Below are positions 34,601 through 37,600 of a DNA stretch of 64,000 nt, in pieces; positions within the stretch are counted from its first letter, which is position 1, and each line of letters begins with the position of its first letter. A program made the translations under genes and the position numbers. The notes under the pieces were generated by a model. It was not told where the DNA came from. It saw only the letters and a list, made by a program, of their open reading frames with translations, and did not search any database. The DNA comes from Mobula birostris (Eukaryota): assembly GCF_030028105.1 (NCBI RefSeq), contig NC_092391.1, forward strand, positions 14,047,223 through 14,111,222, written 5' to 3'.

Positions 34601-37600
34601 TATTAATAAGCCTTAAGATTTTCAAATAAATGGTGTGCTTTCTACAACATACAGAAAACAGCATGGAAATACCTAATAAAGTACTTTACCTTGTGTTCCA
34701 AGGCTTTAATGGCATCTTGATCAATCTTGTTTTGTCTCTCAAATGCAACCATAGTAGTATGAGTCTTTTCGACTTCTCTGTTTAAAACGGTCACAATATT
34801 TTCAAATGTCTGGATTTTTCGTTCAAGAGCATCAATTTTATTTTGGCACCCGGCTAATACTTGACCAGAGTACAATGGTGCCTGACAATCCGAACTGTTA
34901 TTAGAACCAGAAGCTCCTTCAAATTGATCAGTTTCTAAGTCTCCATTTGATTCCACAGCAACCTGGCTGCGTAAAGTGAGTAACGAACTTTTGTATGACA
35001 AAGACAACATATTCTTCTCAATTTCTTGGACTCTGAGCTGCAGCTGAGTAACCACTGAGGGGACAGCAATTACTGATGCGTCTTCATCATTGCTGGCAAC
35101 GCCGGAATTTTGCAGGCAGTCGGCTTTTATGGTATCGACAAACTGAAGTAACAATGCAAGATGTGCGACAGCTGAATTGTTTTCGTGATCCTTGAGACGC
35201 TCTTTGCCACCCTTTGTTAATAAATACATATAGTTAAAAACTGCAAATTGAATAGGGTAAAATTTAAAATAGTTTTCAAGTTATAACTGATAGAGCAGTA
35301 CTCATGTAATTCTTGGAAAAGTTCATTAAAAGCAGCATACTAAATAATCCCCAAGGGCAGACATATTAACGTTGGATGTTGAAGTTACAGTATTCACCAG
35401 CCATCGACTCCAACCTCCACTCCTCTCCAGCAAAGCCAGAATGAGGGTTTAAATCTGTCTCCCCCTGGCCTAGAAGGACCAGGATATTCTGCTGTTGGTC
35501 TGGGGGGTGGGGGGGAGATAATCATGTGACAGACCATAGTTATTATTTCATGTGCAGAATTGGAACATTTTAAACAGGGATTCTAACATCCTACAATAAA
35601 TGCCTTAGTTAAACCCATAGACCAGTGACCACATGCTCCAATGAATATAAAAGAATAATAACCTCTCCACTAGTGGTGTTGCCTGTGTAGGGTGTAGTGT
35701 ACCAGCTCCCATTAAACCAGCCATTAGTTTAGGATCCTTCAAACTGTCCCTCTGGTCTTTTGGAGCCATTCTGCTGTCTACAAACTGATGTAATGGTGTG
35801 AGTGAAAATAAACAAAATTGTTTGGAATGCCTGTGTCTAGAATCTTTATTTTTTTTATGAGTTATAAACCAGTAGAGCACATTAACTGAAGAGATTGCTT
35901 TGATCAGCCAAGCTAGCGATTGTTTCACTGTTGGGGTGTGTAAATGGTGAACTTCCAATAACTGCAAAATGAGGCGGAGTGACTAACCGGGCAAAGGGGC
36001 AAGGTTAGCATGAGAATTAGCATTGCCAACCTGTTCTATTACTGCAATATCTGTAAGGCAGGTTATAGATTTCTACATTACATGCAATAGCTGGACACAG
36101 AATGACATTAAAAAAAGCTAGTTATATCCTTCCTGTAAGGCAGCCAGGCACATTATACCAAAGAAAGACGAACCCCGTATTATAAAAATAGGTATACTGT
36201 GAAGATCGCAGGGAATTAAAACAAAAATATTCATAAACTAGAGTTCTGTGGGGTTATATATCCAGTTACAGGAGGTCAAAGAAGTAAGATATTTTTCCTA
36301 CTATTTCTTTTTCCTATTATTACATCGTAGAAATGTTATAAAATAGAAGGAAAACTAGGCATTTTATTAATAGTTCTGCTTTAAAATTCACGGGGAATTC
36401 AAAAAAGAAATATCAGATTCTTAAAAAGTCTATGAAAAATAAGTCATTCATACATTCTACAAATTATTTTAATGCTGCAGGTTAAATTTTCCTACAAGGG
36501 TTATAAAAGATAACCTATGATATCAATCTCTGATGTGTCATTTTCACTTTCAGATCATGTATTTCATTTCAGTAACCAATTATCTTGATTAAGAACAAGC
36601 ACAAGAACATAAGAAATAGGAGCAGGAGTAAGGCCATCCGGCCCATCGAGCCTGCCCTGCCATTCAATAAGGTCATGGCTGATCTGTCCGTAAACTCAGC
36701 TCCATCTACCTGCCTTTTCTCCATAGCCCATAATTCCCTTACTATGTAAAAACCTATCGAACTGTATCTTAAATATATTTTAGTGAAGAAGCCCCAACTG
36801 CTTCCCGGGCAGAGAATTCTACAGATTCACCATTCCCTGGGAAAAACAGTTTCTCCTCATCTCCGTCCTAAATCTTCTCCCCTGAATCTTGAGGCGATAT
36901 CCCCTAGTTCTAGTCTCGCCTAACAATGGAAACAACTTTCCTACTATCTTATCCATCCCTTTAAAAATTTTGTATGTTTCTATAAGATCCCCTCTCATTC
37001 TTCTGAACTCCAGAGAGTACAGTCCCAGGCGACTCAATCTCTCCTCATAGGTTAACCCCTTCATCCCTGGAATCAACCTGGTGAACTTCCTCTGCACTGC
37101 CTCCAAAACTAGTATATCCTTCCTCAAGAATGGAGACCAGAACTGCATACAGTACTCTAGCTGCGGCCTCACCAGTACCCTGTATAGTTGCAGCATGACT
37201 CCCTGCTCCTGAATTCAATCCCTCTAGCAATGAAGGCCAACATTCCGTCTGCCTTCTTAATAACCTGTTATACCTGCAAGCCAACTTTTTGTGATTCATG
37301 AACAAGCACTCCCAAGTCCCTCCGCACAACAGCATGTTGCAATCTTTCACCATTTAAATAATAATCTGCTCTTCTATTATTCCTCCAAAGTGGATGATCT
37401 TGCATTTACCAACATTGTATTCCATCTGCCAGACCTTGCTCAGCTGCGGCAGTGTGTTTGTGTCCTTGAACAAGGCACTTAACCACACATTGCTCTAGTG
37501 TCTGTGCGAGGAGTGGCAACCCACACAGACTTCCAATATGCACCTTGTAAGGCATGAAAATGCCCGACGCAGGCCTCTCATGGTCTGAGTCGACGTTCCC

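Follow-up and report, generated by a model that had tools for sequence, protein, structure and literature searches.

Human TRAF1 is cut by caspase-8 at LEVD163, a site reported in Irmler 2000 and tabulated in PMC11738786. According to PMC5192267, the D163A mutation abolishes cleavage, a caspase-8 inhibitor mostly does so too, and the C-terminal fragment is pro-apoptotic. One reference of the review PMC6305416 states in its title that cleavage turns TRAF1 from a selective modulator into a general NF-κB inhibitor; the review itself gives cleaved TRAF1 no demonstrated role in primary cells. Both this review and PMC11117997 define TRAF1 as lacking a RING. Domain listings for teleost TRAF1 do include a RING (yellow catfish, PMC10179116; carp, PMC13603144), and the available text of these two papers mentions neither a placental RING loss nor a caspase site. 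A literature search, which reached only a minority of subscription journals, found no paper on the evolution of the site or on the placental loss of the RING. RING-bearing TRAF1 may be mentioned in a book chapter of 2007 about the phylogeny of TRAFs.

The TRAF1 of the ray Mobula birostris combines features of these systems. With human TRAF1 it shares an orthologous gene, a site at the aligned position of LEVD163, the core GDLExD and a C-terminal product made of coiled coil and MATH domain; unlike human TRAF1, it has, N-terminal of the cut, additional zinc fingers and an intact C3HC4 RING, the latter shared with the teleost proteins. Its site, read from sequence alone, has Thr at P2, Gln instead of the human Cys at P1′, and a nested D-x-x-E↓G motif (arrows mark the bond that would be cut). 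With TRAF2 (PDB 3knv and 3m0a) it shares the full layout of RING, zinc fingers, coiled coil and MATH domain, and differs from it in having fewer complete zinc fingers and a TRAF1-specific N-terminal motif; moreover, the linker of the TRAF2-like paralogue of the ray is without the caspase motif.

The ray TRAF1 gene and its LETD motif

The window is the whole stretch of 64,000 nt that was analysed, and all positions below refer to it. The TRAF1 model has 10 coding exons on the minus strand (54260 to 28412), encodes 587 aa with GT-AG borders at 9 of 9 introns, and shows 0 differences from XP_072096148.1 (TRAF1 isoform X1, Mobula birostris; P0124). Coding exon 1 (54052..54260) holds an N-terminal P-x-E-x-E motif (54180-54212) and RING ligands 1-6, exon 2 (51804..51888) the final two RING cysteines and a TRAF2-like insertion, exon 3 (48835..48933) zinc finger 1 (Pfam TRAF2_zf), and exon 4 (41194..41355) a TRAF-type zinc finger (Pfam zf-TRAF). 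Exon 5 (72 nt, 39753..39824) precedes exon 6 (69 nt, 38311..38379), in which the last zinc finger begins; exon 7 (34690..35211) contains the end of that finger, the linker with the site and the start of the coiled coil (Pfam TRAF_BIRC3_bd). The end of the coiled coil and the start of the MATH domain lie in exon 8 (33308..33485), and the MATH domain continues through exon 9 (30810..30958) to its end, with the stop codon, in exon 10 (28412..28630). Read by eye, the frames of the 64,000-nt window gave no evident host gene besides TRAF1. Fragments at 7350-9975, 19484-20107 and 36819-37892 presumably derive from LINE reverse transcriptases, those at 13604-14753, 46876-47390 and 61555-62344 from Tc1/mariner transposases, and the frame at 59537-60061 looks GIY-YIG-like; all of these assignments were made by eye.

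The protein is laid out as a RING (residues 41-80), zinc fingers to about residue 249, a linker, a coiled coil with a cIAP-binding stretch, and a MATH domain. Pfam PF16673 and PF21355 both score above cut-off and PDB matches are found too, the coiled coil being the only match in a PDB search with exon 7. All 8 RING ligands are present, contrary to the absence of an N-terminal RING by which mammalian reviews recognise TRAF1. The best PDB match for this RING is TRAF2 (E 4.6e-21), which has a similar insertion after the RING, an insertion that the ray RING has relative to TRAF6. The gene is nevertheless not TRAF2: it is identical to the RefSeq TRAF1, and in a 19-row tree the 12 named TRAF1 rows group on one side of a branch, apart from TRAF2, with support of 100/99, and the ray protein falls within this TRAF1 clade. 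Eleven bird rows labelled TRAF2 read as TRAF1 models without the linker (4 of the 11 were inspected).

A sequence-only reading had reported a LETD motif at 34927..34938 with its Asp at about residue 327, and a direct reading of the window finds it there, encoded on the minus strand from 34938 to 34927 as residues 324-327 (P4-P1), with Gln328 (34924..34926, minus strand) at P1′. In a scan of the whole 587-aa protein, LETD↓Q is the sole [LIVM]ExD and no DxxD occurs. When the protein is shuffled 5000 times, some [LIV]ExD arises in 38% of cases, and LETD itself has 0.01 expected occurrences in shuffled sequence; because a lone [LIV]ExD is this frequent, the reading of LETD as a chance motif was discarded solely on its conservation.

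Residues 309-347 are predicted to be coil with a pLDDT near 30 in an AlphaFold2 model built from a 57-row alignment, whose mean pLDDT of 69.6 and pTM of 0.32 make its domain packing unreliable; the context of the site is thus predicted to be exposed and unstructured. A cut at 327 would split the RING and zinc fingers from the entire TRAF domain, so that domain matches and the predicted coil linker agree with where the sequence-only reading had placed the site. Contigs from 4 of 4 sequencing runs (one study; presumed RNA) span exon 7 fully and splice it to exon 8, and by our own comparison their loose ends match exons 6 and 9. This contig check covers the exon 7-8 stretch; the remaining junctions are based on the RefSeq match and the loose contig ends. 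Splicing out of the site in rays was rejected, since no joint falls within exon 7 in any of the 4 runs of that one study, with the proviso that contigs lose rare forms.

Conservation of the site across jawed vertebrates

Lack of conservation in related sharks and rays had been named beforehand as one outcome that would refute the proposal, and this outcome did not occur. In a set of 45 chondrichthyan proteins reduced to one per named species (n = 23; isoforms and unnamed records left out), LExD is kept in 23/23 species, as LETD in 21, LEMD in 1 and LECD in 1. Across 94 linker columns of these species there are 13 invariant columns, 9 of which fall within residues 312-331 and 4 outside that block.

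The pattern extends beyond cartilaginous fishes. The vertebrate set (n = 124) consisted of 120 of the 234 matches, those listed, plus 4 placental proteins, and [LIVMP][ED]xD occurs in the TRAF1 linker of 104 of these 124. Among the matches listed, it is found in 10/10 chondrichthyans, 2/2 of coelacanth and lungfish, 4/5 non-teleost ray-fins, 26/29 teleosts, 8/9 amphibians, 6/7 turtles and crocodilian, and 44/58 birds; placentals have it in 4/4. The 20 misses among the matches listed include 14 bird models without the segment or exon, the others being 1 alligator isoform, 3 salmonids (Glu at P1), bowfin (VVAD↓G) and bullfrog (IAAE↓C). As a control, 148 further TRAF-family representatives were taken, from which 7 TRAF1s were excluded, along with 28 whose linker was below 25 residues or whose length was above 800; 6 of the remaining 113 non-TRAF1 representatives contain the motif. 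None occurs in the linker exon of the ray TRAF2-like paralogue, a gene on the contig that also carries TRAF1.

In the alignment, Asp327 is conserved in 40 of 41 non-teleost rows, compared with 32/41 for Asp323 and 1-14/41 for the other linker Asp columns; related rows are non-independent, but the pattern nevertheless covers all main jawed-vertebrate groups sampled. The conservation of Asp327 across these linkers is above chance. Thus, the sequence-only description of a site conserved within an otherwise divergent linker holds for aligned chondrichthyan, bony-fish and tetrapod sequences. Variation at P4-P1 fits caspase sites, with P2 free, P3 Glu or Asp, and P4 hydrophobic; Pro stands at P4 in 7 songbird rows. 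The four placental proteins read AAVEVAGDLEVD↓C, and the ray LETD aligns with their LEVD↓C, which bears out its earlier description as the counterpart of human LEVD163 (listed in PMC11738786). On this alignment, LETD327 is almost certainly orthologous to human TRAF1 Asp163.

Several lineages depart from the common form. The salmonid proteins P0069, P0072 and P0090 carry Glu at P1 and Gly after it, protein P0207 is without the motif, and gecko TRAF1 (P0211) reads LDMD↓A with its RING kept; in these lineages the switch may be relaxed. Alligator isoform P0040 skips the site stretch, through what may be genuine splicing or a model error, and 9 other crocodilian proteins (P0368-P0376) keep LEVD↓C. 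In whale shark and zebra shark (P0006, P0150), VESD↓G precedes LETD↓H and is, with its favourable Gly, another candidate site. Lamprey TRAF2-like proteins (P0223, P0364-P0367), whose tree position on a long branch is unsure, have a long low-complexity linker in which LDVNGGD resembles the upstream half of the TRAF1 block, with NKVD↓S or NKAD↓S and no LExD.

In five elopomorph fishes (P0084, P0085, P0070, P0089, P0091), a hydrophobic-E-x-D↓G stands at the register of an upstream VExNG, and decayed LEAG or IEAG is found downstream in 3, a possible site turnover in which VExNG became VExD↓G and the old LExD decayed. This pattern suggests that cleavability was kept and not position, the register being ambiguous in other teleosts. 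A site shift in all teleosts was rejected: the upstream register fits elopomorphs only, and GDLETD↓G (characin) and GDLEVD↓G (catfish) are consistent with the old site after a small deletion.

Conservation is not confined to the caspase motif itself, which raises the alternative that the block L312-D327 (34927..34974, minus strand; within the divergent linker and predicted disordered) is conserved for binding, as an acidic linear motif, and that the caspase cut, real in mammals, is a by-product that in rays is weak or does not occur. The 16-residue block is larger than a caspase requires, with L312, A317, E319, G322 and D323 conserved at 0.74-0.90; elasmobranchs throughout tolerate a poor P1′, and the lamprey LDVNGGD resembles the upstream half without a LExD. 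However, the P1 Asp is the top-conserved column (0.98), teleosts hold hydrophobic-E-x-D↓G with the flanks lost, and the 5 elopomorphs with D↓G at the upstream register, 3 of them with decayed LEAG or IEAG, are what would be expected if cleavability is kept. We consider this alternative very unlikely.

RING loss and the N-terminal motif

The RING is ancestral and was rejected as a ray novelty: its pattern is present in 119 of 120 non-mammalian TRAF1 matches among those listed, and all eight ligands are invariant in 53/53 alignment rows. Of 4 marsupial proteins, 3 have it too and the other is a short isoform; Tasmanian devil, antechinus and dunnart (P0210, P0357, P0358) combine an intact RING with the site LEAD↓C. 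Placental TRAF1 lacks it in 4/4 proteins (P0196, P0200-P0202), where a 19-residue RING deletion leaves five cysteines and the middle zinc-finger exons are lost. Across a sample of vertebrates that lies outside monotremes, RING loss in TRAF1 therefore looks placental-specific. Since the site is found in the RING-bearing TRAF1 of all sampled jawed-vertebrate groups and the RING is lost only in placentals, the candidate caspase site is older than RING loss. In non-placental TRAF1 the RING ligands are intact; signalling by this RING is putative, and so are E2 binding and ubiquitin transfer of the kind that active RING E3 TRAFs such as TRAF6 carry out.

Because the site predates RING loss, the ancestral cut would have taken off the RING half. 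The sequence-only reading had suggested that RING removal may be the original purpose of the site. That purpose itself is weakened: the site persists in placentals that have no RING, so RING removal would not be its sole use, and the cut also severs an invariant N-terminal motif. RING removal as the selected purpose of the site is accordingly a tentative idea, and one we somewhat doubt.

The severed motif, P-x-E-x-E-(F/Y/L)-P-x-G-x-P, is encoded at 54180-54212 on the minus strand, and we take it to resemble the TRAF6-binding consensus P-x-E-x-x-aromatic/acidic. Its P17, E19, E21, G25 and P27 never vary across the 57 TRAF1 rows, RING-less placentals included, and the ligands of the last zinc finger are invariant as well. 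The cut may thus matter for severing this motif or the last zinc finger, with RING removal incidental. Retention of AAVEVAGDLEVD↓C in 4/4 placentals is in keeping with such a role, as are the likeness to the TRAF6-binding consensus and the title cited in PMC6305416, by which cleavage of the RING-less human protein yields a general NF-κB inhibitor. Chondrichthyans, however, have Leu and no aromatic residue at position 22 in 13/13 rows, and partner binding is putative. As the main account of the cut this reading seems unlikely, and it is compatible with a RING-removing cut rather than exclusive of it.

The residue after the cut and the proposed switch

The ray LETD327 agrees with the (L/I/V)-E-x-D found at P4-P1 of caspase-8 sites. 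Its P1′ Gln is not among the small residues (G, A, S, T) favoured there; human TRAF1, with Cys, is still cut. In the peptide library described in PMC5322338, human caspase-8, -9 and -10 cut best after LEHD when Gly follows, then Ala, Ser and Thr, with other residues poor or not accepted and Cys outside the library; the earlier remark that a P1′ Gln is not optimal agrees with this. Gln and His each follow about 1% of known caspase sites according to PMC7225963. The 23 chondrichthyans have His in 17, Gln in 4 and Tyr in 1 (all elasmobranchs), and Ser in 1 (chimaera). Among the matches listed, P1′ is Gly or Ser at every one of the 32 sites scored in coelacanth, lungfish and ray-fins, the optimal Gly in 25/26 teleost sites, and Cys in most tetrapods, birds having Cys in 42 and Ser in 2 of 44. 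The elasmobranch P1′ is, on the residues compared, the least favourable among all groups.

Two caspase-8-like genes of the ray genome were read at their catalytic exons, both of which contain QACQG and match human caspase-8 best (E 6.7e-49 and 1.9e-42). One of them (L004:1468-1983; G000:C7 near 120.50 Mb) carries DLETD↓A in its intersubunit linker, at the position of the LEMD at which human caspase-8 cuts itself, so DLETD occurs as well in a likely processing site of a ray enzyme. The other (L003) reads IEQD↓S and LEED↓A, and P1′ in these ray linkers is Ser or Ala. A third caspase-8-like match nearby (L005) has a stop within the match. Executioner caspases accept His, Phe and Tyr after DEVD, as reported in PMC5322338, and caspase-6 at LETD↓H may be a further option.

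An unfavourable P1′ leads to another alternative, in which the working cut of chondrichthyans lies three residues downstream and Asp327 serves as P4 of a caspase-3/7 site D-x-x-(E/D)↓G, with LETD↓Q/H cut slowly. In the ray, the nested candidate is D327-Q-F-E330↓G331 (34915..34929, minus strand), read as DQFE↓G. D-x-x-(E/D)-G is anchored on Asp327 in 23/23 chondrichthyan species, with Glu in 21 and Asp in 2, so that chimaera (DSAD↓G) and sawshark (DYFD↓G) have an ordinary DxxD↓G; Gly331 is invariant and residues 332-346 variable, and no nested site was seen in the alignment rows of bony vertebrates. PMC5322338 reports that DEVE↓G is cut 9-fold (caspase-3) and 3-fold (caspase-7) slower than DEVD↓G and that Glu is accepted almost only before Gly, but the cited peptide library was without P2 Phe or Tyr and P3 His or Gln. 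Moreover, L324 and E325 are invariant too, although a site for caspase-3/7 only needs neither, and a single invariant Gly among 94 columns could be chance, given 4 other invariant columns outside the block. The two cuts would be mutually exclusive because a cut after Asp327 takes away the P4 Asp. The RING half would be lost likewise, at a later stage of apoptosis, and the fragment would start at Gly. On balance, a downstream working cut is quite improbable; that elasmobranch cells cut at one or other of 327 and 330 is fairly probable.

The exposed residue may also bear on the lifetime of the product. [quoted passage not shown] The routes differ, with deamidation then arginylation for ray Gln, direct recognition for His or Tyr, and oxidation for mouse Cys. 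P1′ is destabilising in 22/22 elasmobranchs and most tetrapods and in 0/33 chimaera and bony-fish sites, through few independent changes; an N-degron trait would have two origins, since chimaera and bony fishes have Gly or Ser. Destabilising residues occupy P1′ at about 20% of caspase sites generally, according to PMC7225963, whose supplements cover orthologous sites from 328 vertebrates and possibly include TRAF1 rows. Alone, a destabilising P1′ is a weak argument for an N-degron, because 13 of the 20 residues are destabilising, His reaches Gln or Tyr in single-base steps, and a single change of His yields in most cases another destabilising residue.

Overall, the explanation we lean towards, at slightly better than even chance, is that LETD327 is the orthologue of Asp163 and that its cleavage likely frees a RING-less fragment of coiled coil and MATH domain, predicted to block TRAF2-type NF-κB signalling. 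By extrapolation from mammals, death receptors would activate caspase-8, which would cut after Asp327; fragment 328-587 would still trimerise, still carry the cIAP-binding stretch and the MATH domain that binds receptors, and so compete at receptors. In sharks and rays the cut would probably be slower than in bony fish because of the His or Gln after Asp, and the new N-terminal Gln, His or Tyr may tag the fragment for Arg/N-degron decay, like Cys in mouse TRAF1, giving a damped, short-lived switch.

A more far-reaching picture, which we regard as improbable, is that TRAF1 was ancestrally a complete TRAF that had a RING and a built-in caspase off-switch and that placental TRAF1 is a half-frozen cut product. 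In this picture the chondrichthyan switch at Asp327 would be two-way: caspase-8 would yield a short-lived N-degron fragment, and caspase-3/7, using Asp327 as P4 and cutting after Glu330, a longer-lived dominant negative starting with Gly that locks in death. If the nested or the N-degron reading is true, a single caspase site would be retunable in both strength and product lifetime. With RING loss apparently late and placental and the site older, sharks, bony fish, chickens and marsupials are the groups in which the role of the RING and the purpose of the cut can be addressed directly.
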